Virus record (IMG/VR): IMGVR_UViG_3300049049_000112
Coordinates: 1-58,949 of that record
Source: a virus
DNA: 58,949 bases
Reading direction: 5' to 3' (one strand)
Shown here: in pieces, positions 4,300 through 54,722 of the stretch
Numbering within the stretch: the stretch's first letter is position 1
Layout: each line of letters opens with the position of its first letter
Made by a program: the position numbers and the translations under genes
Notes under the pieces: model-generated
Database searches by the model: none
What the model saw: only the letters and a program-made list of their open reading frames with translations
What the model was told of the DNA's origin: nothing

Positions 4300-4301
4300 C
4301 G

Positions 4302-23668: not shown

Positions 23669-23686
23669 GAGTTCTCCTCGAGGCAC

Positions 23687-24095: not shown

Positions 24096-24270
24096 CGGGC
24101 ACCTCGCGCCCGTCAGCGTCTACGTTGACCGGCCCGCACGTAGCGAGCTTGCGCGCGTCGGCTTCAGCGAACCTCCACCGATGATCATCGCAAAATGCGC
24201 AAAGAACGCGAAATGTAGGGTACCCGCAGTCTGCGCAGGGATACCTCCCGTAGAAGTCCGGCAGGGTCAT
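24088..24270 (-). CDS. Small zinc-ribbon protein (60 aa)
   Basis: CADCG...CAFCDDH Cys pairs; ATGA overlap upstream. Confidence 0.5.
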   Translation of the reverse strand: MTLPDFYGRYPCADCGYPTFRVLCAFCDDHRWRFAEADARKLATCGPVNVDADGREVPGE

Positions 24271-24956
24271 ACGGCCTTCTTGACTAAGGCGAGCTTCGCC
24301 TTCTTCTGGGCCTGGAGCTCGTCCTGCACCTGGCTCGACTTGCCGGGGGGCGGGCGATTGTCGATCAAGATCCCGAGGGCCTCGGAGTCGAGCACGATGG
24401 CGCAGCACGCCATGACCTGCCCCAGGTTGTGCACGCCGTCCGACGAGATGCGCTCCCCGTCCAGGTAGTTGGCCAGGTGGCGCTGGGCTGCCGCAAGGTA
24501 CGTCATCGCCTCCACGGGGTCCTTCCGCCAGTTGTAGGCCCCGTACTTGGCGTCGCCCACCTCGAGGGCTGAGGCCATGTGCAGCTGCCCTACAGGCGGT
24601 ATGAGAGCCAAGTCCGGCTTGGTCGCGCCGAACGCCTTCTTGGGGTTCGGGTTCTTCGGCGCGGGCGGAGTCTCCTTTGAACAAATGTTCAGTGTCGGGT
24701 CTGAGTCGTTCAGCGCTGTCTGCATCGCAGACTTTCGGAACGACTCTTCCCGTTCGATATCGGAGAGCAGGCGGTACCACGGGTCGGCTTGCTGCCTTGC
24801 AGAGCAAGCTGAGCGAAACCAGCGGGTGGTGTCCGGGCGGAAGTACTCTAGGTTGCCGTCCAGAACGCGGTAGGTGTTCCCCTCAAAGGAGTACCTACGC
24901 TCTGGGTCTGCGGTCATTTCCTCGATTGCCTGGCTGTACGTTCGCTTGTTGCTCAT
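24267..24956 (-). CDS. Protein with C-terminal dATP/dGTP diphosphohydrolase-like domain (DUF5664-like by recollection)
   Basis: 229 aa; KPDLALIPPVGQLHMASALEVGDAKYGAYNWRK...AAAQRHLANYLDGERISSDGVHNLGQV fits the remembered family pattern. Confidence 0.55.
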   Translation of the reverse strand: MSNKRTYSQAIEEMTADPERRYSFEGNTYRVLDGNLEYFRPDTTRWFRSACSARQQADPWYRLLSDIEREESFRKSAMQTALNDSDPTLNICSKETPPAPKNPNPKKAFGATKPDLALIPPVGQLHMASALEVGDAKYGAYNWRKDPVEAMTYLAAAQRHLANYLDGERISSDGVHNLGQVMACCAIVLDSEALGILIDNRPPPGKSSQVQDELQAQKKAKLALVKKAV

Positions 24957-25279
24957 GTTAGGCTCTCCGTGTCTACTTCGACGTCTGCTAGCGAAACCCA
25001 AACATCCGACCCGTACACCTCCATGAGCACCCCCGGCACCAGGGATACGGTTTGTGTCTCTCGACCGTGATCCGAGTACCCTCCGTGAACCTTCTTGTGG
25101 GCGACGGGCAGCTGCGCCTCGTGTCCGTCGCGGAAACGCACGCGGATGGCCTTCCCCTCCTTCAGAGTCAAAGCGTCGCGCTGATAGCTGCAACAACCGT
25201 GCAGGCGTACGGTGCCGGGCTTCTCGAAGTACTCTGTGCCCCAGTCGTTTCCTTTGTTTAGTTTTACGAAGTTGCTCAC
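24953..25279 (-). CDS. Hypothetical protein (108 aa)
   Basis: Intact ORF, ATGA overlaps on both sides. Confidence 0.55.
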   Translation of the reverse strand: MSNFVKLNKGNDWGTEYFEKPGTVRLHGCCSYQRDALTLKEGKAIRVRFRDGHEAQLPVAHKKVHGGYSDHGRETQTVSLVPGVLMEVYGSDVWVSLADVEVDTESLT

Positions 25280-26622: not shown

Positions 26623-26807
26623 AAAAACTCGCCGTATTTAGCCTCGAACCTGTCAGAACACGCAACGCTGCAGAACAGCACCCGCCTCAGCACCGGCTCG
26701 CAGCACTCACCGCAAACGAACTCCTCGTTAGGGTCTACGTCTTGCTCGAACAGCGGGCGAATGGCCTTGAACCAAGCAGTCTTTAGTCGCCTGTACGCGC
26801 CTCTCAT
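26619..26807 (-). CDS. Small Cys-rich (zinc-binding-like) protein (62 aa)
   Basis: CGECCEP...CSVAC; coupled overlaps. Confidence 0.5.
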   Translation of the reverse strand: MRGAYRRLKTAWFKAIRPLFEQDVDPNEEFVCGECCEPVLRRVLFCSVACSDRFEAKYGEFL

Positions 26808-27280
26808 CGAATCCCACCGCCCTCGACGAACTTAGCGTTTGGGTACCGAGCGCTAAGCTTCTCGTAGTTCGCCTGGGCGATCTGCATCAGATCCTTGCCG
26901 GTCACGTCCTGGAGGCGCATCGCACTGCTGAGTAAGAGCCCGCTCAGCAGCTCTGAGTCCAGGTCTTTGCCGTGCCACAGCGCCTTCTTCACGTGGTCAC
27001 AGATGCGCGCCACGTTCGTGCTCAGGGGTAGGTTGTTGGGCTCGCCCCTCGCCTCGACGGCCACACCTTCGCAAGTGAGCGCCCACACCAGTGCAGTGTG
27101 GTACCAGAGGACGTCTCCTGCCTCGAGAAGAGCCTCTTGGAGAGTGCCGGTGAGTAGCGCCTCCTCGAGCTCGCCCGTCTCGCCAGCGAGGCCCAGGCAG
27201 ATGCACGCAAGCGGCATCCTTACGCCGTCCTTGTGCGCTAGCTGGATGACGAAATCTGCGTAGATTTCGGGCGTAATCAT
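26804..27280 (-). CDS. mazG: MazG-like nucleoside triphosphate pyrophosphohydrolase
   Basis: 158 aa from ATG 27280; LGLAGETGELEEAL...EAGDVLWY all-alpha NTP-PPase motifs. Confidence 0.75.
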   Translation of the reverse strand: MITPEIYADFVIQLAHKDGVRMPLACICLGLAGETGELEEALLTGTLQEALLEAGDVLWYHTALVWALTCEGVAVEARGEPNNLPLSTNVARICDHVKKALWHGKDLDSELLSGLLLSSAMRLQDVTGKDLMQIAQANYEKLSARYPNAKFVEGGGIR

Positions 27281-27621
27281 ACTACTGCCTCTTGGGCCAG
27301 GGCGCCCTGCTTGATCGCGTGGCGGACCTTGCGACGGATGCCCTCGTACATCGTTTCGTAGTTGGTGGGTAGTAGGCCAGCGCCGGAAACGGTCGTGCCG
27401 CGGACGTACAGGCTCTCGTGGTACTGGTCCATCGAGCGGGGAGTAGCAACGTAGTGCCCGCAGATCTTGAGTAGTGACGAGACGATCGCCTGCCCGGCCC
27501 ACATCTTCTGCTGGATCGCCTTGCGACGGCGCATCACTTCCTTGACCGGGTTCGGGTGCTTGTTTCCCGCAATACGCGTATCTGTGGCTTGGCGTCGCGC
27601 CAGCTTACGTCGAGCAGACAT
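27277..27621 (-). CDS. Hypothetical basic protein (114 aa)
   Basis: ATG 27621 preceded by gggggag; upstream part of track ORF 27277..27744 rejected. Confidence 0.55.
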   Translation of the reverse strand: MSARRKLARRQATDTRIAGNKHPNPVKEVMRRRKAIQQKMWAGQAIVSSLLKICGHYVATPRSMDQYHESLYVRGTTVSGAGLLPTNYETMYEGIRRKVRHAIKQGALAQEAVV

Positions 27622-35287: not shown

Positions 35288-38152
35288 CTACTGCTCGTCA
35301 AGCCCGCTCGCCCAAGAAAACAGCTGCTCGTGGGTTGCCCGCCTTTTTGGTTGCATTTCAGACAGAAGCCCCACGCCGTCCGGCACCGAAGGGAGGGACA
35401 GCCGACGTAGCGCCGGCAGGTCTTTGGTGAGGGGCTGAAGAGCTCGCGCGTAGTGGGGGCCCAGGACCTCAGCCAGCTCAGCCTGCGGGTACCAGAGCAG
35501 CGCCCCCTCGAGCAGCCCGCTCGGCGTCTCAATCAGGTCGTCCTCGATCCACTCGTCTATGCTCTCGGCGTGCCAGCTGGCAGGCGCCACGTCGCCCTCC
35601 ACGAAAACGGTGCAGGGCTTGGTGCGCCTTGGCAGCCGGAGCCTGCCCTCGGCCTGTGTGAGCTCCCCAGCGGCGTACGCAACCCAGGCCTGGTCCGCAG
35701 CCTCGCCGGTCAGCCCCAGCTGGTAGAGCGTAGGCATGACCGCGAAGCGTGGGGTGCCCAGCAGGTAGATCACACTGCACTCCTTCGGGGCCCGCTCCTG
35801 CCAGTTATTTTTCCCCCGGAGCGCCCCGTAGTGCCCGAGCTCGACGTTCTCAGGTACACCGCGCTCGCGGATAGCGTCGATAACTGTCTTGAACGACACG
35901 AACAATACACGTTTGCAATCGTACCGGCTCGCCTCGCGAGCAGCGCGGGCCAGCGCTTCGTCTATCGCCGGCCAAGGAATGCCGGGGGCTTCGCCGGGCT
36001 CCCGGCCTCTGCGCTGCCGCAGGCCCGCTTCGTCGTCGTAGTAGCTCTCGGTGAGAGCCTTCGAGCCTCGCTGCCCCCGAACCACCATCTTCCTCGTGAC
36101 CTTCGCGCCGTCTGTCACTGCGCATTCCCGGAGCTTGAAGCCGGGTAGGGCTGCCATCAGCGGCGTAGCGCTCAGTAGCACCCCGGCGCGCCTCACCAGC
36201 GCCTGGTGGCAGGCGTCCGGGAGCATCGCTGCTATGTCGCCCTGCTCCCAGAGCCCGATGCCGCCTACGGTGCCTCCCTGGGCCTTGTGCGCGCAGAGCC
36301 GGATCAGCGCATCTGCCGCCTTGAGCAGCGGGCGCTCAGCAGCGCGAGGTTCTGCGTCGTCTCGGAGGCGCAACCGGCCCCACTCGACAGCGAGCTCGAC
36401 GGCATTGCCCACGGGCTCCTGGTTCGGTCCCCACTGGACCTTGCCGGGCTCGACGCCCACGCACCACGCCCGAGCGATCGTTGCCGCGAGGTGCGCGCAG
36501 CCGACTTCTGCGGACGTGAGCCGAGCGCCCTTGGCCAAGAGCTTGAGGTGCTCTCTGCTCAGGCTCACGCACTCGTACGTGCCGGGCATTTCGTCCACGA
36601 TCAGCTGCAGGTCGTCGCCCTTGTCCTCGCCGAATAGCTGGCGGATTCCCGCATGCGAGACGAAGATCACGCTGGCTTCTGCCATGGCCTTGGCTCGCTG
36701 CGTAGCGGCTGCGAACGCGGGACAGTCTGGGCGCTGCGGGCAGCGAGGGCAGATGCTCCCGAGCAGACTCACGCCAAACTCAAACACGCGCTCCTTGAGC
36801 TCGTCTGCACGTTTGCAGATGGGGTCCTCGCCTACCTGAATCAACGGGCTGTGCACGTGCACGCTCCGAGCTCGAACGTCAGGCGGCAGCAGGTTGCGCG
36901 TCTCGTTCGCGACGACATGCTCCTGCGTGCTGTACACCAGTCGGTACCCCTGCCGAGCATACTCCGCGAGCACCTTAGCGCTGGCGAAGCTCTTGCCCGT
37001 GCCGGCTGGGTACTGGATGATCGTGGGCTCGCGCGCTGCGAGGCCTTCGCGGATGTCCACCACGAGCTTCGCTACGGCTGCGTCTACGCTCACGGCCTCA
37101 GCCGCTGGGGCCTGCACAGCCAGCTGCTCTTCCACCAGCAACCGAAGAGCTGTCGGCGGGGCGAACGCTCCGGTAGACGTAAGCCCCAGAGCGCCCAGCA
37201 ACTCCTTGCGAGAGCATCCTGCATGGCAGCGCAGGTCTACACCGTTGCCGTTCGCTCGCACTGTGAACGAAGGCGAGCGCTGGTGCCCGCTCGGTGCGCA
37301 TGCGGGGCACGCTGCGCGCTGCCAGCCCTCGTAGCCTTGCGCCTCCACACCGGTCTTCTTGCTCAGCAGGTCTACGATACGCGCCAGAGCTCCCACAGCT
37401 TGCTCGTCTGGTGCTTGGTAAGGGCGGAACTTTGCCTGGCTCGGGCGAGCTGTTGTGTCGCGCTGTAAGATGTCGTCCACGTAGAGCGGGTTGCCTTGGT
37501 AGACGTCGATCGTGCTGTGCGCACTGGGGATGAAATACCCTCTCGAAGGGGTAGAGCACGTGGGATCCCAGCCCCTCGGCGAGGCTGCGCGCGGGCGTCC
37601 GTTCGCGTCCTCGATCCACTTTCCGAGTACCTCTTTAGCGTAGTGAGCTGGGTCCGCGGGGACCTCGTGGCCGAAGAGCGCCGGGACTATCGCGGCGTGC
37701 TCCGCTGGGCTTACTTCTCGCGAGTAAGGCAGGACGATGCGGAAGCTGTCGAACGGGCCCGACTTTCCGGTGCCCTTGTGGACCTTGTCGACCTTGCCGT
37801 GAGACCAGCTCGTGTAGGCGATGTGCGCGTAGCCTGCGGCGCGAATCGAAGAGCTGATTCTGTCGAGCTCCCCCACGTCGGCATGGTCGCAATCGAGCAC
37901 GGCAGCGCATACGCTGTTGAGCCCCGCGTTGCCTCGCTTCGTGCCCTCTTTGTAGATCGCTGCACCGAAGAGCTGTTGAGCGTGCTTGCTCGTAGCTGGA
38001 TCGCTGCCGAACACCTCGAGGATGTCGGTCTCGGTCCACGGTACACAGAACGCGCGCTCTATGCGCGTGCCTTTGTGCCCGGTCCGCTCGAACAAAACTC
38101 CGACGAACTTCAGCAAGAGTGCAGCTTGGCACGGCTGCTCTCCAAGCGTCAA
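35288..38152 (-). CDS. Large replication protein: primase-polymerase-like N-terminus, zinc finger and P-loop NTPase/helicase-like domain
   Basis: 954 aa; AAVLDCDH acidic motif; CPACAPSG...CHAGC zinc finger; Walker A YPAGTGKSF; Walker B LIVDEMPG; TTG start. Confidence 0.65.
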   Translation of the reverse strand: MTLGEQPCQAALLLKFVGVLFERTGHKGTRIERAFCVPWTETDILEVFGSDPATSKHAQQLFGAAIYKEGTKRGNAGLNSVCAAVLDCDHADVGELDRISSSIRAAGYAHIAYTSWSHGKVDKVHKGTGKSGPFDSFRIVLPYSREVSPAEHAAIVPALFGHEVPADPAHYAKEVLGKWIEDANGRPRAASPRGWDPTCSTPSRGYFIPSAHSTIDVYQGNPLYVDDILQRDTTARPSQAKFRPYQAPDEQAVGALARIVDLLSKKTGVEAQGYEGWQRAACPACAPSGHQRSPSFTVRANGNGVDLRCHAGCSRKELLGALGLTSTGAFAPPTALRLLVEEQLAVQAPAAEAVSVDAAVAKLVVDIREGLAAREPTIIQYPAGTGKSFASAKVLAEYARQGYRLVYSTQEHVVANETRNLLPPDVRARSVHVHSPLIQVGEDPICKRADELKERVFEFGVSLLGSICPRCPQRPDCPAFAAATQRAKAMAEASVIFVSHAGIRQLFGEDKGDDLQLIVDEMPGTYECVSLSREHLKLLAKGARLTSAEVGCAHLAATIARAWCVGVEPGKVQWGPNQEPVGNAVELAVEWGRLRLRDDAEPRAAERPLLKAADALIRLCAHKAQGGTVGGIGLWEQGDIAAMLPDACHQALVRRAGVLLSATPLMAALPGFKLRECAVTDGAKVTRKMVVRGQRGSKALTESYYDDEAGLRQRRGREPGEAPGIPWPAIDEALARAAREASRYDCKRVLFVSFKTVIDAIRERGVPENVELGHYGALRGKNNWQERAPKECSVIYLLGTPRFAVMPTLYQLGLTGEAADQAWVAYAAGELTQAEGRLRLPRRTKPCTVFVEGDVAPASWHAESIDEWIEDDLIETPSGLLEGALLWYPQAELAEVLGPHYARALQPLTKDLPALRRLSLPSVPDGVGLLSEMQPKRRATHEQLFSWASGLDEQ

Positions 38153-38228
38153 GAGTTACCACGATCTCAGTAAGAGCTTGACCGCTACTACGATCTATGA
38201 GAGCGTGGGAGTAACAAAGGAGAGCGAC

Positions 38229-38396
38229 ATGGAAGATGAACGCTTGAAGGTACCGGAGACCTACACCCGTGAAGAGCGAGAGGCTTGGGATCGATATCTG
38301 GCCGGGGTTCTGATACCGGCAGGCTCGGTCGCGAGCTCTGCCGCACTCGCAGACCTGATGCTCGAAGAGCGTCGGAAACGGTTCGGTGCGCGGTGA
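38229..38396 (+). CDS. Small hypothetical protein (55 aa)
   Basis: aaaggag SD before ATG 38229; first gene of a coupled triplet. Confidence 0.5.
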   Translation: MEDERLKVPETYTREEREAWDRYLAGVLIPAGSVASSAALADLMLEERRKRFGAR

Positions 38397-38557
38397 TTAC
38401 GATCTACGCCTTCTCCGCGTTCATTGCCGCTATGAGCTGGATCTCCCTGCTCGCGGGCGGGGCGGAGCCTAGGCTACTGTCGAAGCTCGCGCTCGGGCTG
38501 CTGTTCGGCGTGAGCGGTGTAGTAGGTTTGATTTACGAAGCGTGGAGGGCACTATGA
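38393..38557 (+). CDS. Small two-TM membrane protein (54 aa)
   Basis: VITIYAFSAFIAAMSWISLLAGG...LALGLLFGVSGVVGLIY; GTGA overlap. Confidence 0.5.
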   Translation: MITIYAFSAFIAAMSWISLLAGGAEPRLLSKLALGLLFGVSGVVGLIYEAWRAL

Positions 38558-38877
38558 GAGTAGACATGAAGCGCTGTTGGGCCCACGGCCCGCACACCGG
38601 AACGACTTGCCTGGCTTGCTCTGAGCAGCGGGCTGTGGCGAGCAGGGAAGCCCTTATGGCGCCCAAGCTCCCGCCTACTGTGACTGGCAGGTTCGTCGCG
38701 GAGCCCGCCCACAAGCGGCTGACGATGACTCCGACCGTGTACGTCGAGGCCGTTGCCGGCATCCCTGCCGCCCACCTTGACCGCTGGGCAGGCTACTGCA
38801 ACGTGGCGCGGGCGCGAGGCGAGACGGACGCGCAACTACGGCAGCGACTGGCAGCCGACTACGCATCGAAGTATTGA
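38554..38877 (+). CDS. Hypothetical protein (107 aa) with N-terminal Cys/His cluster
   Basis: ATGA overlap; CWAHGPHTGTTCLAC. Confidence 0.5.
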   Translation: MRVDMKRCWAHGPHTGTTCLACSEQRAVASREALMAPKLPPTVTGRFVAEPAHKRLTMTPTVYVEAVAGIPAAHLDRWAGYCNVARARGETDAQLRQRLAADYASKY

Positions 38878-38909
38878 GAATCATTCGGAGCTCCCCTCAA
38901 GATCACGCG

Positions 38910-38971
38910 GAGCTCCCTCGATCAAAAACTCGAAAACGTTTAGAGCTCCCTCGATCAAAAACTCGAAAACG
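38910..38971. repeat. 29-bp direct repeat x2 (gagctccctcgatcaaaaactcgaaaacg), 4-nt spacer
   Basis: Copies at 38910-38938 and 38943-38971; GAGCTCCC box also at 38888 and 38976; gatcaaaac/gttttgatc inverted pair. Confidence 0.9.
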
Positions 38972-39000
38972 CCCGGAGCTCCCTGTTTTGATCAGGCAGG

Positions 39001-39067
39001 CCCACATCCACCCACATCCACCCACATCCACCCACATCCACCCACATCCACCCACATCCACCCACAT
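39001..39067. repeat. Perfect 10-bp tandem repeat cccacatcca x6.7
   Basis: Six identical 10-nt blocks plus cccacat, read directly from the listing. Confidence 0.95.
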
Positions 39068-39078
39068 GTAGGTATTCT

Positions 39079-39175
39079 GCGCAGTAGCACCTACCTGTAG
39101 TTATACCGAGTAGAATGATTACACTTCCCTACTCAGCCCGACATGTAGTTATACCGCGCAGTAGCACCTACCTGT
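39079..39175. repeat. Permuted repeat pair X-Y ... Y-X
   Basis: X = gcgcagtagcacctacctgt (39079-39098, 39156-39175); Y = tgtagttataccg (39096-39108, 39144-39156). Confidence 0.9.
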
Positions 39176-39178
39176 GGG

Positions 39179-39290
39179 TGGCCCGATTCTTGCAAGGGCG
39201 CTCTGTGCGCAAGCTAGGCGGCACGATCCTTGCAAAGGACGGTGTGCGCTGATGTCAGTGGCCCGATTCTTGCAAGGACAGCTGTAGGTC
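39179..39290. repeat. About 40-bp period repeat x2.5 centred on the palindromic core CTTGCAAG
   Basis: tggcccgattcttgcaagg at 39179 and 39259 (80 bp apart); variant gcacgatccttgcaaagg at about 39221; each followed by (c/g)tgtgcgc in the first two units. Confidence 0.85.
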
Positions 39291-39467
39291 TATCTCTGCT
39301 TTCCAGTCCGGCCGCATACCCGTGCGATCCTTGCGCACACCTTCCTTCCAGACAGTCTTGCCGGACCGTAGACACACAAGAGACCATGCCTCGTAGGTTT
39401 CGCTCTCTCCGCGCACATCAGGGTACATGTATACGCGTTCGCTGCCTTCGGTGTGAATCTTATACAC
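39255..39467 (-). CDS. Hypothetical protein (70 aa)
   Basis: GTG 39467 overlaps the stop of the upstream 43-aa ORF (GTGTATAA); 3' end overlaps the third 40-bp repeat unit. Confidence 0.45.
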   Translation of the reverse strand: MYKIHTEGSERVYMYPDVRGESETYEAWSLVCLRSGKTVWKEGVRKDRTGMRPDWKAEIDLQLSLQESGH

Positions 39468-39591
39468 GGCTTGCCTCCCATTCGCGCACTAGCGCTTCAC
39501 TGTACTCGCGTTCTACTCTAGACAGCACAGACCGGCGGCAACCGCGCGATGCGAGGTAGCGGAACATCTCGAGTAACTCTTGGCTCGTCAT
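39460..39591 (-). CDS. Small hypothetical protein (43 aa), first gene of a leftward pair
   Basis: MTSQELLEMFRYLASRGCRRSVLSRVEREYSEALVREWEASRV; divergent from 39758; below the track cut-off. Confidence 0.4.
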   Translation of the reverse strand: MTSQELLEMFRYLASRGCRRSVLSRVEREYSEALVREWEASRV

Positions 39592-39719
39592 ATTTATATT
39601 AGACGCGATCTTGAGCCTTCCGTCAATACCCTATTACTACGATCTGCAGGCCCCGACGAAAGCGACGCGAGGTAGTAAAAGAGTAGTGGCGCGCGGGTGC
39701 TGGGCATGAGAGGATATCT

Positions 39720-39748
39720 GAGTAGGACGCAATCGGCACTCGAAAGGA
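39720..39748 (+). promoter_or_regulatory. Conserved 5' leader box, copy 1 (gagtaggacgcaatcggcactcgaaagga)
   Basis: Identical apart from one extra g to 41371..41398; ends 9 nt before ATG 39758; contains GCACTC and an AAAGGA SD. Confidence 0.6.
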
Positions 39749-39757
39749 CGGCATTCA

Positions 39758-40141
39758 ATGAAGCTCTCGCATACGCTCTCACCTGACTCTAAACTAGAAC
39801 GACATGTAGCCCAGTGGGTGCGCGATAGAGCGCGCAACGGTTACGATGGCAACGTTGCCGCGGTATTCAAGGATCTAATGCACGGTGGGTGTTCATCCGG
39901 CATTGTCGGACACTTAATCTACAACGTCGATTGCGAGCGCTTCTTTCGCACACACCGTAAGGAAATAGGCGCGATGCTAGGCAACCTCTTACGTGAGGCT
40001 TGCCTTGACTTGAGCGGACATAGCGTGTGGGATGAAACGGACCCTCTCGCACTAGAGACACCAAACCAAGTGTTTCTCGCACACCTTGGTTTTGAAGAAG
40101 CCGCGCGCGCCTTGGCAGACAGGGCCGGGATCGACGTATGA
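39758..40141 (+). CDS. Hypothetical protein (127 aa) with GGCSSGIVGHLIY motif
   Basis: First of four ATGA-coupled genes; lower-GC island. Confidence 0.6.
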   Translation: MKLSHTLSPDSKLERHVAQWVRDRARNGYDGNVAAVFKDLMHGGCSSGIVGHLIYNVDCERFFRTHRKEIGAMLGNLLREACLDLSGHSVWDETDPLALETPNQVFLAHLGFEEAARALADRAGIDV

Positions 40142-40356
40142 CACAGTCAGAATGGGAGAAACTACCATGGGACACCTTGCGTTTCCCGCGCGCCGTACTT
40201 TCGCCTCAGAAAGCAGCGTACGTACTCCGCGCACATGGCCTGACCTGCAGACTACCTAAGCCGGGGTGGGTGATAAACCTCGGGCAAGGTCGCGCGTTAG
40301 AAAACGAAGGTGGCGCGTACCGCGCTTACAATGCGACACAAGAGGGGTGGATATGA
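40138..40356 (+). CDS. Hypothetical protein (72 aa)
   Basis: ATGA overlaps at both ends. Confidence 0.55.
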   Translation: MTQSEWEKLPWDTLRFPRAVLSPQKAAYVLRAHGLTCRLPKPGWVINLGQGRALENEGGAYRAYNATQEGWI

Positions 40357-40556
40357 CGTCCCGGCGCATCGTGCTCCTAACGTGCGTCTCTGGACTTGTG
40401 TGTATCGCTGTCGCGTGTGGTCCGGTTGACGACGTACCTAAGCCGAACGGCGCACATGTAAACCAAACCCAGATAATGCTCGAGAAATGCAAGCGTGTAG
40501 GATCAGGTAAGCCCTGGGTCGAATGTTTCAACGCTAATTGGAGGGTAAGCGAATGA
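40353..40556 (+). CDS. Small lipoprotein (67 aa)
   Basis: MTSRRIVLLTCVSGLVCIAVACG signal peptide plus lipobox; ATGA overlaps. Confidence 0.6.
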   Translation: MTSRRIVLLTCVSGLVCIAVACGPVDDVPKPNGAHVNQTQIMLEKCKRVGSGKPWVECFNANWRVSE

Positions 40557-41146
40557 CACACACCGAAACCTTCACACTCACAGTTGCTCAAATGTGCGCC
40601 GATATTGACGGATGGAACGATCGTGATCTCTTGGAAGGCATGGGGCAAGATGAGGCGCTCGCCATTCTCGCCGACGGGACTCTAGTGCGTGCTGTCGGGG
40701 GCCCAGCCTTCGGTAGTTTCAAACTTTCACCTCGACAGCACGAGCATGCGCACGCTCTAGCCCTGTCCAATGCCGCGGAGTCCCGCGGTATCCTAGTGGC
40801 GAACGACAATGCAGGCATGGGCCAGACATGCTGGCTTCTGTGGTTTGGCGCCTACGGTAGCACCAAGGTGCTCGCATGGGGCTCATTGGAAGATGCGTTA
40901 GAGGACGCCGCACGTGTCTTACATGAGGGGCACTTTTCCGACTTGTCAGAAGAGTACGAATATGCGCTTGCGGAACTAGTCAAGGGTGGTGCAGACCCTA
41001 CGGATGAAAGTGTCATGCAGAAGGCGCAAGAAACCGCGGAAACCGACATGACCTACACTGAGAGAGGTTACCTCGCATCGGGGGAGTGGGGCTACTCGAT
41101 CGAGAATCCCACGCTTGCCGATATTCTTGAGTTACCCGAAAAGTAA
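40553..41146 (+). CDS. Hypothetical acidic protein (197 aa)
   Basis: ATGA-coupled last gene of the 39758 operon. Confidence 0.6.
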   Translation: MTHTETFTLTVAQMCADIDGWNDRDLLEGMGQDEALAILADGTLVRAVGGPAFGSFKLSPRQHEHAHALALSNAAESRGILVANDNAGMGQTCWLLWFGAYGSTKVLAWGSLEDALEDAARVLHEGHFSDLSEEYEYALAELVKGGADPTDESVMQKAQETAETDMTYTERGYLASGEWGYSIENPTLADILELPEK

Positions 41147-41370: not shown

Positions 41371-41398
41371 GAGTAGACGCAATCGGCACTCGAAAGGA
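41371..41398 (+). promoter_or_regulatory. Conserved 5' leader box, copy 2 (gagtagacgcaatcggcactcgaaagga)
   Basis: Ends 7 nt before ATG 41406; a related gcactcacgaaagg box lies before ATG 42142. Confidence 0.6.
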
Positions 41399-42591: not shown

Positions 42592-42628
42592 GCACGGGTC
42601 TTTCTGGGCAAGGCCCATGCCAGCTTTG

Positions 42629-42837
42629 TCAGCAAAACCCATGCCAACCTGCCAAGGGCGCAAGCATGAGTGCATGCACATAGAGACATGCTTGGCACAC
42701 CGCTTGCCTAGTTTACAACCGCTTTACACGACCCGCTTGCTCTACGTTGTCGCACACTTGGCGCACAAACCTCACCTAACTCGGAGCCTTCTTTACAACC
42801 GCTTTACAGCCCTCTTCTCAGCAAAACCCATGCCAAC
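42629..42837. repeat. Interleaved direct repeats: a 20-mer x2 and a 17-mer x2
   Basis: tcagcaaaacccatgccaac at 42629 and 42818 (each followed by aagcatg-n-gtgcatg); tttacaaccgctttaca at 42712 and 42792. Confidence 0.9.
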
Positions 42838-42927
42838 TTGTCAACCCAGAAAGCATGTGTGCATGTAGTGTAGTGCAACGTATGGTCATGACCATATGAC
42901 ACCAATGTCATGCAAGCCCACCTGCAC

Positions 42928-42969
42928 CACGACAACGGAGTCATAGCCCACGACAACGGAGTCATAGCC
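42928..42969. repeat. 21-bp iteron-like tandem pair (cacgacaacggagtcatagcc x2)
   Basis: Perfect tandem, followed by cacacaggtcagagct. Confidence 0.9.
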
Positions 42970-43049
42970 CACACAGGTCAGAGCTGGCACAGACTGGCAC
43001 ACCTTGCCTACCTTGCACACCTCTGCTACACAGCGCACCTTGCCTACAC

Positions 43050-43091
43050 CACGACACAGATGTCATAGCCCACGACAACGGAGTCATAGCC
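43050..43091. repeat. Second 21-bp iteron-like tandem pair (variant copy plus perfect copy)
   Basis: cacgacacagatgtcatagcc then cacgacaacggagtcatagcc, followed by cacaggtcagagct; caccttgcctac x2 (43000, 43036) lies between the two pairs. Confidence 0.9.
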
Positions 43092-43199
43092 CACAGGTCA
43101 GAGCTCTCGCCTACTTGCGCACATGTAAACCGAGACCCACACCGGGGTACCTTGTGTGCAAGGCTCGCTGGGTTGGGCTGCCCCTCGGCCCGCTGGGAA

Positions 43200-43246
43200 A
43201 TATTTTTTGAAAAACGAAGGCCTCGGCTCATATTTTTTGAAAAACG
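43200..43246. repeat. AT-rich 17-mer x2 (atattttttgaaaaacg), 30 bp apart
   Basis: Most AT-rich spot I noticed in this GC-rich genome; each copy is followed by (a/g)ggcctcg. Confidence 0.9.
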
Positions 43247-43699
43247 GGGCCTCGAGCGGCGATTCCAGATTCCGAAAGCCGGAACGTAGCAAACTCGATA
43301 CCCTAGCCAGCGGGCTGAGCTGAAGTTCGTAGTCTCGCTGGGAGGCGCTAGAAGGCCCTGACCGAGGCCAAGACGTCCGCACCTAGCGACCCCCTACGGG
43401 GAATCGATTCTAGACCCCGCCACGGAGCGGGAATCACCATCCTCGCCCTCCCTTGGCGGTGAGGCATGCGGTAGTAGCGCCGTAGTCGCCTTCGGCTTAT
43501 CCCTACACAACGTGGTGCCAGCGGAGGAGGTCGAAAACATCAGGTACTGAAGGAAGAGGGCTGGCTGAATGCAGCGCTGGCTCAGCGATAGTCTTCAGCA
43601 ACCGCCTTCGGCATCTGGTGTGGTGCTCCGTCTATAAGAGAAAGGGCGAAGCCGATACACTAATCACGCGCGCATGCGCTTGCTCTCCGCCCTCCTTTT

Positions 43700-43857
43700 T
43701 CACCGGAGCTGCAAGCTTGCTTAGCAGGCCAGTAGTACGCCGCGCGCATGAATATATGCGCTCCGTCCTCCCATATTCATGCGCAGGTACGCCTGGTCTC
43801 CGTTGTCCCTCATCACCGGAGCTGCAAGCTTGCTTAGCAGGCCAGTAGTACGCCGCG
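43700..43857. repeat. 45-bp perfect direct repeat x2 flanking a 12-bp inverted repeat
   Basis: tcaccggagctgcaagcttgcttagcaggccagtagtacgccgcg at 43700-43744 and 43813-43857; gcgcatgaatat (43744) / atattcatgcgc (43783). Confidence 0.9.
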
Positions 43858-43872
43858 ACGCGTGATATATGG

Positions 43873-43901
43873 TTGACTACGAACGTAGTACCGGGTAGTG
43901 T
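43873..43901 (+). promoter_or_regulatory. Sigma70-like promoter TTGACT-N17-TAGTGT with ACTACGAACGTAGT palindrome
   Basis: Followed by AAGGAG and ATG 43920. Confidence 0.6.
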
Positions 43902-43919
43902 TGCTCAAAAGGAGACTAA

Positions 43920-45121: not shown

Positions 45122-45592
45122 ATGGCCGCACCTCCCCTCCCGGACAGAGCGAAAAAGACACGAAGCTTCAAGACTACGATCGAGCCTTGGATGACCCCGG
45201 TAGTCGTCAAAGCGATCGAAGCAGGCATGCCCTTGCACCTCGTAGGCGGCCTCGTAGGAGTTACTCGACGTACGCTGACCTCGTGGCGAGACCTGGGCTC
45301 TACAGAGGGCTGCCCGGAGCCGCTACTCGTAGAGTTCGCCCTTGCCGTGGAGGAGGCCCGAGCGAAGGCGTCCATGGCCGGCGTCCAGCTGATGCAGCAA
45401 CATGCCGCTGTGGACTGGCGAGCGGCCAAGACGCTGCTCGAGGCGCAGGACCCAGAAACATGGGGCACGAAGACGAACATGAAGATCGAGGCGACGGTCG
45501 CCCCCGGCCCGGCCCGAGACCTCAGCAAGCTGACCGACTCCGAGCTCCAGCAGCTCGCGATGCTCGAGACGAAGCTTCTGCCGAGTGGCTAA
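45122..45592 (+). CDS. terS: Terminase small subunit
   Basis: 156 aa; HTH-like VGGLVGVTRRTLTSW, then AAVDWRAAKTLLEAQDPETWG typical of small terminases; upstream of terL. Confidence 0.75.
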   Translation: MAAPPLPDRAKKTRSFKTTIEPWMTPVVVKAIEAGMPLHLVGGLVGVTRRTLTSWRDLGSTEGCPEPLLVEFALAVEEARAKASMAGVQLMQQHAAVDWRAAKTLLEAQDPETWGTKTNMKIEATVAPGPARDLSKLTDSELQQLAMLETKLLPSG

Positions 45593-46046
45593 GCCTCTCG
45601 CAAGGCTGCGTCACACGCAGGCCACGAAGGTCAAGATCTCGGATGCCAAGAAAGGCAGGCCGCGCTCCGCCGAGACCAAGGCGAAGATCAGCGCGGCGCG
45701 GACCGGGCAGAAGCACTCACCGGAGACGATCGCCAAGATCACGGCGAAGCGTCGAGCCTTGGCAGCGATGACCGACGAAGAGAAAGCGGAGCTCGCGATA
45801 CAGAAGCTACGAGCGGAGCAGGCGAAAGTTACCGACGCTCGGGTCAATCGCTGGAAACTCGATCTCATGGCCTGCTCCCGTATCGGGAACGCCCAGCTGT
45901 ACCTCGACGTCAAGCAAAGCGGCGGCTGGCGCTCGAAGCGCGTCATGCGCAAGGCGGACCCGAGAGTATCCGAGGGATGGTGTCACAAACAAGGTAAGGT
46001 CTTGTGGCCTACCCAAGAGAAGGCAGTAGAAGATGGCATCGCCTGA
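45585..46046 (+). CDS. NUMOD3-repeat DNA-binding protein without a recognisable nuclease domain
   Basis: Three tandem S/T-x-E-T-x-x-K-I-S/T motifs (TKVKISDAKKG, SAETKAKISAARTG, SPETIAKITAKR); overlaps both terS and terL. Confidence 0.6.
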   Translation: MAKPLARLRHTQATKVKISDAKKGRPRSAETKAKISAARTGQKHSPETIAKITAKRRALAAMTDEEKAELAIQKLRAEQAKVTDARVNRWKLDLMACSRIGNAQLYLDVKQSGGWRSKRVMRKADPRVSEGWCHKQGKVLWPTQEKAVEDGIA

Positions 46047-47523
46047 AGTTGATGTTGAGATGGTCAAGCGGTACGGCTTTTCGGCGTTCGTCAAGCTGGC
46101 GTGGCACGTCATAGAGGAAGAAGAGCTCGTATACGAAAATCACATGGGTGTAGTTTGTGACCACCTGCAAGCAGTCTCCAGAGGGGAAATCAAAAAGCTC
46201 GTCGTAAATGTTCCGCCAGGCACCTCAAAATCACGACTGTGCTCCGTCCTTTTCAATGCATGGGACTGGATCGAGAACCCTTGGAGAAAGTTTCTCTATA
46301 CCTCTTTCGACGAGAAGCTCTCCCACGAGTTCGCTAAGATCACCATGGACCTTATCTCTAGCGAGTGGTTCCAGGCGCGGTGGCCCCACGTTCAGATCAA
46401 AGGAGACCGCCCTGCGGCAGGGTGGTTCCACACCATCGGTGGAGGGCAGAGGGTCAGTACGATGTTCGGAGGCGGCGCTACTGGCCGTCACGCGCACTTT
46501 CTATTCGTAGACGACCCGCATAAACCCCGCGATCTCGACGCAGGAGGAGAGTCGGCCAAGGCGGTTCTCGACGCAGCATGGAAAGTATGGACGGGTACAT
46601 TCCTACGCCGCGTCGCGAACGCAAAAACGTTCGCCTACGTCTGCATCATGCAGCGCCTTCACGAGGAAGACCTTGCGGGTAAGATCCTACGCAACCCGGA
46701 CGTGGTGCACGTCTCGCTTCCGATGAAGTTCGAGCCGGACCACGCCTGCGTAACCAAGTGGGGCAGGGACTGGCGCACCGAAAAGGACGAGCTCCTCTGC
46801 CCGCTCCGCTTCCCAGCCGAGTACGTTCACGACGTCGAGCACAGCGCCGAGGGCATGACGCCCATGGGCTTCGCGGCCCAGATGCAACAAAGACCGACTC
46901 CCGCCGGCGGCGCTCTGTTCAAGACAGAGTACTTCGCTCAGCGCTGGACCAACCTACCGATCGGCGGGCGGTACCTGATGTCGGTCGACGCCTCGCTCAA
47001 GGACCTGAAGGACTCCGACTACTGCGTGATTCAAGTTTGGTACTATCTTCGTAACGAGTACTACCTAGTAGACCAGGTCCGCAAGCGCATGGCGTTCTCG
47101 GCCACAGTCGACGAGGTCAAGCGCATGAAAGAGACCTGGCCCAAGATCGGCCAGGTGCTGATCGAGGACAAGGCCAACGGCACAGCCATCGTCGACGTCC
47201 TGAAGCAGAACATGGCTGGTGTGCTGGCTGTCAATCCAGAGGGCGGCAAGTACAGCCGAGCGTCGGCCGTCGAGCCGTTCATGCGCGCCATGAACTGCTG
47301 GTTCCCGACCCACGCGTCCTGGATGAACCAGCTGATCGAGGAGCACACGACGTTCCCAGTGGGCTCGCACGACGACACCGTGGACGCCCTGTCGCAGGCG
47401 CTGTTGTTCATGAGCGGCAAGAAGAAGGGCCAGCGCCTGAAGAAGGCCATGGCCGCGGTACGAGCGGGGGCGATGGCAGCTCGGCCAAGCAGGACAGCCC
47501 CGAGTCAGTTCTCTTTTTCTTGA
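46033..47523 (+). CDS. terL: Terminase large subunit
   Basis: 496 aa; Walker A-like VNVPPGTSKS, Walker B HFLFVDDP, MQRLHEEDL, nuclease-domain DSDYCVIQVW and GSHDDTVDAL. Confidence 0.9.
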   Translation: MASPEVDVEMVKRYGFSAFVKLAWHVIEEEELVYENHMGVVCDHLQAVSRGEIKKLVVNVPPGTSKSRLCSVLFNAWDWIENPWRKFLYTSFDEKLSHEFAKITMDLISSEWFQARWPHVQIKGDRPAAGWFHTIGGGQRVSTMFGGGATGRHAHFLFVDDPHKPRDLDAGGESAKAVLDAAWKVWTGTFLRRVANAKTFAYVCIMQRLHEEDLAGKILRNPDVVHVSLPMKFEPDHACVTKWGRDWRTEKDELLCPLRFPAEYVHDVEHSAEGMTPMGFAAQMQQRPTPAGGALFKTEYFAQRWTNLPIGGRYLMSVDASLKDLKDSDYCVIQVWYYLRNEYYLVDQVRKRMAFSATVDEVKRMKETWPKIGQVLIEDKANGTAIVDVLKQNMAGVLAVNPEGGKYSRASAVEPFMRAMNCWFPTHASWMNQLIEEHTTFPVGSHDDTVDALSQALLFMSGKKKGQRLKKAMAAVRAGAMAARPSRTAPSQFSFS

Positions 47524-47679: not shown

Positions 47680-47714
47680 TTGACGTATCAACCTTGGAAC
47701 TCGGTTGTGTCGCA

Positions 47715-47723
47715 TGGTAGTAT
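47715..47723 (+). promoter_or_regulatory. Extended -10 box TGGTAGTAT, 5 nt before ATG 47729 (leaderless)
   Basis: tggtagtat-gcggc-ATG. Confidence 0.55.
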
Positions 47724-47728
47724 GCGGC

Positions 47729-49255
47729 ATGGCCGAGTCTCCTACTTTCGCGAACAAGATCTCAACTCTCAAAGGGCTCGGTAAGTCCCGCACGGCTCAA
47801 GCAGTCATCGACGCGTTCGCGAACCAGCTCACCGGAGCAGGCACGTCTCGGTCGAAGGTCGCAGCCGGCGAGTACGTCAACGCCCCCCTGTTGACGCCCG
47901 AGGAGCTCGAGGTCCTGTTCGCGGACCACGACCTGGCCTCGATCATCGTCCAGCGCCCAGTCGACGACGCCCTGCGCGACGGCTTCTGCATCGAGAAGGA
48001 GGGAGGCACAGCCGACGAGGACAAGGACAAGGCGAAGGCCCTGAAGGACGCCTTCGATAAGCTCGACGCGGACCCTACGGTCGGCAGCCTCATTCACCGA
48101 GGCGGGGTCATGGGGCGCCTGTTCGGCGGGGGAGGGCTCATCATAGGGGCGGCAGGCGCCGGCTCGCTCGAGAGCCCTCTGGACGACGAGAAGGTCAAGA
48201 AGCTCGAGTTCCTGCACGACTGGGATCGGCAGGACATGGTGGAGAACACCTACCACCTGGACGGGACGGTAGAGACCTACCTCTGGACCCGCCCAGCGCG
48301 GGGCAACAGAAGCTGGCTGCCGGTCAAGGTGCACGCCTCTCGGCTCATTCAGTTCCCCGGCGCGACCACCACGAACCGCAAGCGCAACCAGAACCAGGGG
48401 TGGGACTTGTCGGTCCTGCAGCGCGTTTATGCGACCCTGAAGAGCTTCGACAGCATGTTCTCGAGCACGGACGCCATGTTCGCGGATGCGAGCCAGGCCG
48501 TCTTCAAGCTCCAGGGCCTGATCGATGCGCTCGGCGAGTCAGACGGCTCCGGCGAGAACGACGTCCGCACCCGCCTGCAGCTCATGGACATGATGCGCTC
48601 TTCGGGCAAGGCGATCATGCTCGACGCAGGCGACGAGAACGGAGACGGCGCTGAAGACTTCTCCACCGTCGACAGAGCGACGCTAGGCAGCCTCGACGGC
48701 ACGATGCAGCAGTACTACATCCGCCTGGCCGCCGCCGCAGGTATGCCGCTGACGGTACTCCTCGGCATGAGCCCGGCGGGCATGGACGCCACGGGCGAGT
48801 CGGACATGATTCTGTACTACAACCGAGTAGACATCTACCGGAAGAAGGTACTCGAACCTCGCATTCTGCGCATCGTTCGCATGCTGGCGCGCGAGCTCGG
48901 AGACGAAGACCCCAGCGAGTGGAAGATCTCATGGCCTGAGTTGGCTAGACCCAAACCCCTCGATGTAGCCACAGAGGCCAAGATGAAGGTCGACGCCTGC
49001 GTGGCGCTGGTCACCGCCCAGATTGCGCTCCCGGAGGAGGTCGCGCTGTCTATGAGCAAGATCGCGCCCACTCTGGGGTTGACCTTGGACAAGGAGTCTC
49101 GCCTCACGGCACTGAAGGACGGCCTCAAGGAGATCGCGAACCGGGAGATGACTGGACCGGGGGCGCTGCCGGAAGAGGAGCCGGAGGGAGTAAGCCCTCC
49201 TACGAAGTCCTCAGAGCGAAAGACGCCGTCGAAGGCGGCTCGCAAACAGGTGTAG
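47729..49255 (+). CDS. Portal protein (DUF1073-like)
   Basis: 508 aa after terL; EELEVLFADHDLASIIVQRPVDDALRDGF and overall pattern recalled from the DUF1073 portal family. Confidence 0.8.
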   Translation: MAESPTFANKISTLKGLGKSRTAQAVIDAFANQLTGAGTSRSKVAAGEYVNAPLLTPEELEVLFADHDLASIIVQRPVDDALRDGFCIEKEGGTADEDKDKAKALKDAFDKLDADPTVGSLIHRGGVMGRLFGGGGLIIGAAGAGSLESPLDDEKVKKLEFLHDWDRQDMVENTYHLDGTVETYLWTRPARGNRSWLPVKVHASRLIQFPGATTTNRKRNQNQGWDLSVLQRVYATLKSFDSMFSSTDAMFADASQAVFKLQGLIDALGESDGSGENDVRTRLQLMDMMRSSGKAIMLDAGDENGDGAEDFSTVDRATLGSLDGTMQQYYIRLAAAAGMPLTVLLGMSPAGMDATGESDMILYYNRVDIYRKKVLEPRILRIVRMLARELGDEDPSEWKISWPELARPKPLDVATEAKMKVDACVALVTAQIALPEEVALSMSKIAPTLGLTLDKESRLTALKDGLKEIANREMTGPGALPEEEPEGVSPPTKSSERKTPSKAARKQV

Positions 49256-53992: not shown

Positions 53993-54001
53993 TGCTACCA
54001 T
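53993..54001 (+). promoter_or_regulatory. Extended -10 box TGCTACCAT at the start of HNH paralog 2
   Basis: Overlaps ATG 54000; the second in-frame ATG 54006 lies 4 nt after the box. Confidence 0.4.
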
Positions 54002-54662
54002 GCGAATGGTAGCTGTCTGTCAGGGAACCGAAAAACACAAAGGCTGCGGCGAAGTGAAAACACTCAACGCCCGCAGCCTTTGTGGTGCTTGTTACGCAAA
54101 GCACCAAGCCAAAGGCTGGCTGGAACCCTCCCGGCAGAGGGTGCGCAAAGAAGGGCAAAAACAATGCAGCCAGTGCCCTTCCCCTGTCTACGGACGCGGT
54201 TTGTGTAGAGCTTGCTACAAGAAAGAGTACGTCGCGCCCACGAAGCCGTGCAAGGCTTGCGGGGAGAGTAAACCCACTCAAGGGCACGGCATGTGCCAGC
54301 GCTGCTACATGCAGAGCAACTCTCCCCAGTACAACAAGAACCGTAGGACAGCGTTCGGTTCGCTCTGCGACGAGGACAAGGAAAAACTGAGGGCGCACCA
54401 GCGCCGCTATCGACGAACCCGTCTGTACGGGCTGAGCCCTCAGGACCAGCGAGCAATGCTTGAAGGGCAGAACAACACCTGCGCGATCTGCCCTCACGAG
54501 TTCAGCGACGGGTCTTATCACGTCGACCACTGCCACAAAACAGGCAAGGTGCGCGGGCTACTGTGCCAGAAGTGCAACCGAGGCCTCGGTCACTTCAACG
54601 ACGAGACGCTCAGGCTGGAGCGAGCCAAGGCGTATCTCGAAGCGCACAACCAGCTCATCTAA
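54000..54662 (+). CDS. Endonuclease VII-type HNH homing endonuclease (paralog 2 of 3)
   Basis: VDHCHKTGKVRGLLCQKCNRGLG; several CxxC pairs in the N-terminal half; inserted after the major capsid gene. Confidence 0.85.
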   Translation: MRMVAVCQGTEKHKGCGEVKTLNARSLCGACYAKHQAKGWLEPSRQRVRKEGQKQCSQCPSPVYGRGLCRACYKKEYVAPTKPCKACGESKPTQGHGMCQRCYMQSNSPQYNKNRRTAFGSLCDEDKEKLRAHQRRYRRTRLYGLSPQDQRAMLEGQNNTCAICPHEFSDGSYHVDHCHKTGKVRGLLCQKCNRGLGHFNDETLRLERAKAYLEAHNQLI

Positions 54663-54694
54663 GACCTGCCGGTATCTTCCTTCAGGCAATACTA

Positions 54695-54722
54695 CACCCT
54701 GTCGATTTCGGTCGACAGGGTG
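54695..54722 (+). terminator. Perfect 11-bp stem hairpin after HNH paralog 2
   Basis: caccctgtcga-tttcgg-tcgacagggtg; only a weak T tract follows. Confidence 0.5.

Follow-up and report, generated by a model that had tools for sequence, protein, structure and literature searches.

A repeat module at positions 38880-39290 of a circular phage genome, IMG/VR virus record IMGVR_UViG_3300049049_000112, resembles an enhancer-dependent promoter region. We analysed the whole record, a stretch of 58,949 nucleotides (nt) that we refer to as the window. At a probability of about one half, and by comparison of sequences, we read the module as a sigma-54-type promoter and operator hub that would fire rightward, antisense to a leftward gene for a protein of 70 amino acids (aa); a role in replication, partition or packaging is improbable. 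Enhancers upstream of sigma-54 promoters are textbook knowledge. A sequence-only reading of the window had described four repeat families here, and all four proved real and lay where it had placed them. The module was also the most repeat-dense segment of its size in the genome: 38.6% of its 10-mers recurred inside it, compared with a median of 0 and a 99th percentile of 21.9% for genomic segments of 410 base pairs (bp).

Promoter-like elements, upstream boxes and a phased array

The main evidence lies in the fourth repeat family, a 40-bp period present 2.5 times (39178-39279), with an exact 20-mer, GTGGCCCGATTCTTGCAAGG, at 39178 and 39258, 80 bp apart. On the plus strand this family holds three elements of the -24/-12 type (TGGCCCGATTCTTGCA twice and CGGCACGATCCTTGCA once), which read TGGCCC-N5-TTGCA with an exact GG-N10-GC arrangement. 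Each is one mismatch from TGGCAC-N5-TTGCA, and together they make up three of only five such matches in 59 kilobases (kb). We scored sites at the 13 consensus positions of YTGGCACG-N4-TTGCW, with GG and GC mandatory and exactly 10 bp apart; the elements at 39178, 39218 and 39258 scored 11/13 with GG and GC in place. The first (GTGGCCCGATTCTTGCA, 39178..39194, plus strand) would start transcription rightward from near 39204, the second (GCGGCACGATCCTTGCA, 39218..39234, plus strand) from near 39244 and the third (GTGGCCCGATTCTTGCA, 39258..39274, plus strand) from near 39284. The 70-aa gene, convergent and on the minus strand, overlaps the third element at its stop region and the third 40-bp copy at its 3′ end.

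Sites of this kind were enriched across the phage group. The window contained 10 sites scoring at least 11/13, compared with 2.8 ± 1.4 in shuffled sequence, and seven of the 10 fell in its two non-coding repeat zones. Relatives contained 34 such sites, compared with 7.8 in shuffles, whereas in controls (358 kb of unrelated viral loci and 576 kb of bacterial loci) the counts equalled those of their own shuffles. Site density was 17-19 per 100 kb in the window and relatives and 2-3 in the controls. Enrichment of consensus matches was 4-10-fold in the phage group and absent from control DNA. At the stricter threshold of at least 12/13, there were 10 sites in 239 kb of the phage group and 0 in the 934 kb of controls.

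We identified the diverged relatives through homologues of a primase-like protein (47-69% identity) and of the protein encoded by terL (45-65%), which gave eight further lineages, named here by L numbers. The relatives keep TGGC.C and TTGC(A/T). Across seven lineages TGT.GGTGG, the second C of the -24 hexamer and TTGC were invariant, and the spacer occurred in six variants: GATTC (window and L038), GAATC (L010/L211), TCGCC (L016), TACTC (L018), GCGCC (L052) and AGAAG (L212). L212 carries the canonical form, TGGCAC-N5-TTGCT, at the homologous position. The sequence-only reading had centred the fourth family on a palindromic core, CTTGCAAG. This palindrome is incidental, because the spacer varies among lineages while the -24 and -12 blocks hold; what is conserved is the bipartite TGGC.C / TTGC(A/T).

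Several of the best sites in relatives were divergent pairs directly before genes. Near the module, canonical sites preceded genes at L211 288(-) and 489(+), L016 2064(+), L018 1089(+) and 846(-), L210 2040(-) and 2199(+), and L212 4244(+). On these grounds we infer that the phage group uses sigma-54 promoters. Four of the sites (L211 288-304 on the minus strand and 489-505 on the plus strand, L212 4244-4260 on the plus strand and L018 846-862 on the minus strand) lie 12-13 nt before an ATG, which would imply nearly leaderless transcripts. TGTCACA repeats were present 60-110 bp upstream of some of the relatives' sites (L212 and L210).

In all five of the lineages that have both, boxes of the type AGCTCCC precede the -24/-12 element by 70-290 bp, upstream relative to the direction in which it points. 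In L212, in which all genes run rightward, boxes (3920-4001) are followed by a -24/-12 element (4069), a second site (4244) and a gene (4273). Upstream of a promoter is the normal place for the sites of enhancer-binding activators, and the four (G)GAGCTCCC boxes of the window are candidate activator-binding sites (an enhancer, or upstream activating sequence).

Between the boxes and the promoter-like elements stands the second repeat family, a perfect 10-bp tandem array of CCCACATCCA present 6.7 times (39001-39067; 100% matches; Tandem Repeats Finder score 134). Its plus strand is G-free and 60% C (C40 A20 T7 G0). Read on the minus strand, the array unit is ATGTGGGTGG, which in the promoter-like sites stands directly against the -24 box; this flank with its box reads CTGTGGGTGG-CCC in the window and ATGTGGGTGG-CCC in L016. 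In the whole genome, 7 of the 11 ATGT[AG]GG[TG] sites fall in the module. We suggest that the array is a phased operator or an architectural element for a promoter-binding factor. Its perfect identity points to recent expansion, and a degenerate counterpart in L011 indicates that such an array can persist.

Module architecture in copies and diverged relatives

The first repeat family consists of four GAGCTCC(C) boxes at 38888, 38910, 38943 and 38976, spaced by 22, 33 and 33 bp, all multiples of 11. Written as (G)GAGCTCCC, the same boxes start at 38887, 38909, 38943 and 38975 (span 38887..38984), and each is then followed by GATCA. Three of the four form the 8-bp palindrome GGAGCTCC. An exact 29-mer, GAGCTCCCTCGATCAAAAACTCGAAAACG, recurs at 38910 and 38943 as part of a 33-bp unit present twice (38910..38975, 29 nt exact) that contains boxes 2 and 3 and tracts of five and four A residues 10 nt apart, in a local context of 62% AT. 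The inverted pair gatcaaaac/gttttgatc described earlier for this family held as an 8-mer (GATCAAAA at 38920 and 38953, opposite TTTTGATC at 38986) and failed as a 9-mer, since the direct copies carry five A residues. We considered control through GATC and Dam methylation and discarded it, as GATC was not enriched in the module.

The third family pairs a 20-mer, GCGCAGTAGCACCTACCTGT (39079 and 39156), with a 13-mer, TGTAGTTATACCG (39096 and 39144), in permuted order. Both lie within an imperfect inverted repeat (39058..39181) with 16-nt arms, CCACCCACATGTAGGT (39058-39073) and ACCTACCTGTGGGTGG (39166-39181), which also contains TGTAG(G/T)T motifs at 39066, 39096 and 39144. A part of this inverted-repeat segment, GTAGCACCTAC.TGTAGTTATAC, is common to the window and L016. 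The third family and the 16-nt inverted repeat are further copies of the word found in the array and the -24 flank, together with a duplicated segment that L016 shares.

The view that this region is non-coding, and that the open reading frames across it are not genes, stood up. Third-position GC showed no signal across 38880-39250, a period of 10 bp does not divide by 3, and gene callers left 38878-39254 (377 bp) empty in near-identical contigs whose gene tables cover it. The module contained neither consensus sigma-70 promoters nor short-loop terminators.

Contigs from at least five other metagenome samples (Joint Genome Institute, JGI) were ~99.8% identical to the window over 1657 nt. Over this length, four of the near-identical contigs differed from the window only at 38878, 38903 and 38938 (comparison with L003/L004), all in the left part of the module, between boxes and never within one. 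The copy number of the 10-bp array was the same, 6.7, in all five near-identical assemblies (L001-L004 and L006). Logan contigs break inside the array, which is uninformative about genome ends because a k-mer assembler behaves in this way at a 67-bp tandem repeat.

About nine diverged relatives, with primases 50-69% identical, share motifs and order with the window. AGCTCCC-type boxes in at least three copies were present in all nine lineages examined, including L010, L011, L016, L014, L052, L210 and L212. The lineage of L010 and L211 has boxes (GAAGAGCTACCGTGATC, 5.3 copies), ACATGTAGG motifs and at least seven copies of GT(A/C)GGTGGCCCGAATCTTGCAA at 30- and 54-bp periods. Its two contigs, both of GCA_030154745.1 (5.4 kb and 53.7 kb), overlap inside the module (L010 1-340, L211 1-120) and are apparently one phage genome of ~59 kb, split by the assembler at the repeats. 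L016 has three GAGCTCCCGATCGATCAC boxes, then GTAGCACCTACATGTAGTTATAC, one ATGTGGGTGGCCCTCGCCTTGCAAGG and a homologue of the 70-aa gene; L052 has three GAGCTCCC boxes with GATCA, and GTAGGTGGCCCGCGCCTTGCA. In L011, six GAGAGCTCC(C) boxes accompany an imperfect 10-bp-phased array (consensus GATGTGGGTA, 5.9 copies) in the same relative place. L014 has boxes and CACCTAC motifs. L210 has four GGAAGAGCTCCC(G/A) boxes and a 15/19-bp repeat, followed by a 74-aa homologue of the 70-aa gene, and L212 has 4.8 copies of TAGCTCCCGCGATCGGA with ACATGTAGGTGGCACAGAAGTTGCT. In L018, the contig of which ends in the module, boxes were not seen; ATGTAGGTGGCCCTACTCTTGCAAGG is present, followed by a 70-aa gene homologue.

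Wherever the elements co-occur their order is constant, and copy numbers, periods and flanking genes vary. The sequence-only reading had suggested a nucleoprotein assembly site rather than a gene and had proposed checking relatives for conservation of the repeat architecture. That check supported the general idea, as the motifs were kept while flanking DNA and genes diverged. The same motifs in the same order in diverged relatives, with number and spacing differing, mark the motifs as selected cis-acting sites, to which proteins would bind. We rejected a neutral micro- or minisatellite: the motifs are kept among diverged relatives, the imperfect array persists in L011, and the free variation in repeat number expected of neutral repeats was not found, all five near-identical assemblies having 6.7 copies; across lineages the number varies and the motifs persist.

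In the window, L210, L211 and L212, the module marks the left edge of a block of small genes and precedes terL by 6-9 kb. Six of seven lineages place the start of a divergently oriented primase-like gene 0.5-4.5 kb to the left of the module. The exception is the L012/L210 genome, whose whole replication block is turned round and whose boxes lie at least 17 kb from the primase gene. The constant distance to terL in four genomes and the loss of primase linkage in L012/L210 indicate, at the level of gene order, that the module travels with the downstream small-gene and terminase block and not with the replication gene.

Motif scans added few relatives. Scans of metagenomes and viral sequences for GTRGGTGGCCC-N4-CTTGCAA returned mostly chance or coding matches, with only L018 and L038 relevant. 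A protein of L038 with a terS-like look was unconfirmed, matching phrog_645 instead. A scan of bacterial genomes for three GAGCTCCC boxes gave at least 120 matches, none with homologues of window proteins, and so identified no host or prophage; the same scan in viral contigs gave one true relative, L052.

A proposed promoter hub and its rivals

We propose the following sequence of events. The boxes would recruit an oligomeric activator, either a host enhancer-binding AAA+ protein or some phage protein. DNA between boxes and promoters, a segment that holds the A-tracts, the 10-bp array and the inverted repeat, would loop with the help of the helically phased array or of a factor bound to it, and the activator would then open closed complexes of sigma-54 holoenzyme parked on the three -24/-12 sites. 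A second factor reading ATGT(G/A)GGT probably binds both beside the -24 box and in seven copies along one DNA face of the array, and may tune the promoters in the role of operator, bridge or decoy. Transcription would run rightward to 39758 and onward, into the block of the DUF7222 gene, small genes, terS and terL. The rightward transcripts would cross the 70-aa gene and a 43-aa gene in antisense, and the converging units could form a switch. The earlier suggestion of a regulatory hub thus gains positive evidence, but its assignment to the adjacent leftward gene pair does not hold, because the module sits at the 3′ ends of both flanking units and the promoter-like elements point rightward, antisense to the pair.

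Known sigma-54 regions (Escherichia coli glnAp2 with NtrC, Pseudomonas Pu with XylR upstream sites and IHF, norV with three NorR sites, and pspA with PspF) share with the module a bipartite -24 GG/-12 GC at fixed spacing, repeated activator-type sites 70-300 bp upstream and a structured or bent segment between the two. They differ in that the module is in a phage, with no activator gene found among the scanned proteins; its promoter is multiplied (three copies, and at least seven in a relative) and has an extra conserved ATGT.GG flank; an array of that flank stands where one would look for an IHF site; and the promoters face a convergent gene. As in coliphage 186 pR/pL, units meet face to face in a temperate phage with a small conserved gene on the opposing strand, but here the promoters would be of the sigma-54 type and activator-dependent, and the interference is our extrapolation.

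Several observations weigh against a sigma-54-type hub. Its support consists of sequence motifs, from which the binding and transcription events are extrapolated. No Sigma54_activat gene was found among the scanned window proteins or in the precomputed Pfam lists of the relatives, and the hub presupposes that the host has rpoN. The elements face a conserved gene on the opposite strand, with no sense gene for ~470 bp until the first at 39758, and the divergent promoter region of the window (39592-39757) contains no sigma-54 site. L011 and L014 have boxes and no recognisable -24/-12 element. Conservation reaches upstream of the usual consensus (ATGT.GG), and the element may be, perhaps additionally, the site of another protein. 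Tandem promoter arrays, with three copies here and at least seven in L010/L211, are unusual for sigma-54.

The main rival is a replication origin, which the sequence-only reading had also offered and which we now consider unlikely. The module would be a lytic origin, with AGCTCCC boxes and ATGTGGGT repeats as iterons for a phage initiator such as the 954-aa primase-helicase-like protein; moderately AT-rich patches would melt, and the promoter-like elements would provide transcriptional activation or priming, as is known at phage T7 and T4 origins. Helically phased repeats (22, 33 and 33 bp, then 10 bp 6.7 times), A-tracts and AT-rich patches in the top 0.1% of the genome fit this model, and the G-rich minus strand of the array (G3-N7 repeats) could favour R-loops for leftward transcripts. 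Its principal argument was the primase-helicase gene 0.5-4.5 kb from the module in six of seven lineages, and this linkage is lost in L012/L210, where the boxes are far from that gene yet keep their place relative to the downstream block. The assignment of the protein as a primase-helicase is itself weak (phrog_3228 at E = 8e-5, no Pfam family). The best patches reach only 62% AT over 40 bp and 56% over 80 bp, with richer ones at 43198 and 39562; the cumulative GC-skew minimum is at 43-44 kb rather than 39 kb, in a profile confounded by gene orientation; and the conservation pattern of the -24/-12 elements is left unexplained. Iteron origins such as lambda ori and P4 ori/crr, which is bound by the alpha primase-helicase, resemble the module: both have phased direct repeats, A-tracts, a primase-helicase-like gene close by (for the module, in most lineages) and, a few kb away (here ~4 kb), another repeat zone. 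In contrast to them, the module has no clear AT-rich unwinding element, is unlinked from the primase in one lineage, has its skew minimum elsewhere and shows promoter geometry. The idea of a P4-like ori/crr pair beside a primase gene is likewise undermined by the L012/L210 genome.

A second alternative keeps the regulation and drops sigma-54. Phage proteins would bind AGCTCCC, ATGT(G/A)GGT and TGGCCC...TTGCA and control or insulate two converging units, and the -24/-12 likeness would be a coincidence. Motifs conserved with variable number and spacing, conservation that goes past the sigma-54 consensus (ATGT.GG), operator-like multimerisation at periods of 30, 40 and 54 bp, ATGTAGG palindromes in the second non-coding zone of relatives and the lack of any enhancer-binding protein gene among the scanned proteins are all consistent with it. 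We nonetheless give it a low probability: the coincidence would leave unexplained why invariant positions match the contacts of sigma-54 and variable ones its spacer, why L212 has the canonical letters and why canonical sites are enriched in only this phage group.

Termination is a very unlikely role for the module. In a termination zone of converging operons, RNA from the array would be a Rho loading (rut) site for the rightward operon, and hairpins of the palindromic boxes with U-runs would stop leftward transcripts. The module does lie between two 3′ ends; the 67-nt array is C-rich and G-free, and its counterpart in L011 is likewise C-rich and G-poor; its six to seven units compare with the six primary binding sites of the Rho hexamer; and the predicted RNA structure of the module is more stable than that of shuffles (z = -3.95 and -5.7). 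But no canonical intrinsic terminator turned up; what a rut site requires is composition rather than a conserved CCCACAT word or exact phasing; most lineages are without a C-rich array; and in L212 the module is upstream of a co-directional operon instead of between convergent genes.

Two further proposals of the sequence-only reading, a packaging recognition site (pac/cos) and a partition or centromere-like site of a plasmid-prophage, are highly improbable: although boxes with GATC recall the P1 pac hexamers and short repeated boxes the R sites of lambda cosB, terS (45122-45592) and terL (from 46033) are 6-7 kb away, GATC is not enriched, the window is circular, the long contigs of L011, L014 and L210 do not end at the module and those that break there are explained by its repeats; and although type II parC centromeres (plasmids R1 and pSK41) are built of tandem repeats of ~10 bp (10-11 bp in these two) that place bound protein on one helix face, the ~60 window proteins scanned (Pfam and PHROG) gave no match to ParA, ParB, ParM or ParR, a tyrosine integrase is present and most module-bearing relatives lack the array. 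Four distant phages (terL 26-27% identical) have GAGCTC arrays 300-500 bp upstream of terL, a point in favour of packaging. We set this lead aside as weak, since sigma-54 sites do not accompany these arrays and all four phages belong to a single lineage. The GAGCTC(CC) arrays, with other repeats, are at L059 7040-7115, L067 7850-7960 (reverse), L075 1200-1385 (reverse) and L088 2140-2190, and lie just past a terminator-like hairpin.

Genomic setting and significance

The module sits between convergent genes. On its left, the stop codon of a plus-strand gene (38554..38877) forms its border. This gene is the last of a short rightward operon, encodes a Cys-rich protein of 107-111 aa, shows a third-position GC signal and is called in the near-identical contigs; the protein had no Pfam or PHROG match and falls in no family. 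On its right the 70-aa gene (39255..39467, minus strand) runs towards the promoter-like elements; it is called in all near-identical contigs, and GGGAGG precedes its start. Searches with HMMER found 19 homologues with the motif D.RGESE.YEA..L..VW.EG[IV]RKDR, and AlphaFold2 modelled four strands and a helix at a predicted local distance difference test score (pLDDT) of 91. The gene is real, given the homologues with a strongly conserved motif and the confident fold model. The protein matched no fold in the PDB and no Pfam family, and a word-indexed search with it gave only a self-match. Its homologues adjoin the module in L016, L018 and L210. The first gene of the leftward pair (39460..39591, minus strand) encodes 43 aa, and its stop overlaps the start of the 70-aa gene; a 47-aa homologue abuts the module in L211.

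The first 127 bases of the window are identical to bases 58823-58949, which indicates a circular assembly with a true size of ~58,822 bp and makes contig ends uninformative about physical termini. The phage is temperate, myovirus-like and new, the last because no GenBank phage matched at the DNA level in a search with 38000-41000 and its portal protein is at most 27% identical to known ones. A tblastn search of phages with the primase-like protein, IMG/VR scans with the 954-aa, 111-aa and 70-aa family proteins, and Rfam and tRNA scans over the window gave no matches. Overall GC is ~61%, and 38.2-45 kb is a zone of lower GC (54-57%) with small genes and two repeat-rich non-coding stretches. Late genes are on the plus strand: terS (45122-45592), a homing endonuclease gene, terL (46033-47523), the portal gene (47705-49255) and then head and tail genes that span the assembly junction and reach ~16.6 kb. 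The NUMOD3 homing-endonuclease-like gene between terS and terL is at 45585-46046, and two endonuclease VII-like genes and a Dam-family adenine methyltransferase gene are inside the structural region (3761-4300 on the minus strand, 54000-54662 and 54563-55333).

Early and replication genes occupy the minus strand from 38152 down to 17396, with the 954-aa primase-helicase-like protein, a PD-(D/E)XK nuclease, a DEAD/ResIII helicase, a family A polymerase, a ligase and the tyrosine integrase (17396-18571). This block (17396-38152) is inverted compared with L012, L015 and L210, in which the primase gene comes after the tail and lysis genes on the same strand. Within it, genes for a protein with a dATP/dGTP diphosphohydrolase N-terminal domain (24267-25196), a MazG-like protein (26804-27502) and the family A polymerase (21725-23686), all on the minus strand, form a group reminiscent of modified-base (2-aminoadenine) gene sets. 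We did not retain the idea of a Z-genome (PurZ), as a 448-aa neighbour and the diphosphohydrolase-domain protein matched no solved structure, PurZ entries included.

The second non-coding zone (42592-43919, 1.33 kb) is also packed with repeats. It contains a 21-bp repeat, CCACGACAACGGAGTCATAGC (42927-42972 and 43049-43094), two copies of ATATTTTTTGAAAAACG (43200 and 43230) that are the most AT-rich 40 bp in the genome, and an 84-nt repeat (43661 and 43774). Near-perfect sigma-54-like sites on its minus strand, TTGGCATGGGTTTTGCT (42631 and 42820) and CTGGCATGGGCCTTGCC (42607), are oriented antisense to the plus-strand gene beside the zone. Cumulative GC skew for the genome reaches its minimum here, and homologous zones are present in L210 (6466-7497) and L014 (60-1100). 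Separately, an exact 23-nt repeat, GACGCAATCGGCACTCGAAAGGA, is at 39726-39748 and 41376-41398, with a partial third copy at 44216; the two full copies end ~10 nt ahead of the start codons of the DUF7222 gene (39758) and a 50-aa gene (41406).

Phage gene timing is classically attributed to sigma-70 promoters, phage sigma factors, phage RNA polymerases and anti-termination. We found no description of sigma-54-dependent phage promoter systems in the literature, in a search of incomplete coverage that amounts to absence of evidence only. What appears to be new, we infer, is the systematic use of sigma-54 promoters by a phage lineage, the multimerised -24/-12 sites and the 10-bp array of the -24 flank. 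A wider picture, which we offer tentatively and with more doubt than confidence, is that temperate myovirus-like phages of a widespread, as yet uncultured lineage entrust an entire stage of expression to host sigma-54 polymerase with enhancer boxes of their own; the tandem sites would hold several closed complexes, draw off holoenzyme and form an activator-gated antisense switch directed at the 70-aa gene, and the array would bind a new factor of the -24 flank, either as a phased operator or as a decoy.

Dense repeat modules in phages need not be origins or packaging sites by default, and here it was comparison with diverged relatives that separated the parts. If the sigma-54-type hub is real, its parts (boxes, a phased array and multimerised sites) would form a compact natural set for the study of closed complexes, looping and antisense switches. 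It would also represent a different phage strategy, one that is ATP-gated and signal-dependent and in which enhancer-binding proteins would link the development of the phage to signalling in the host.

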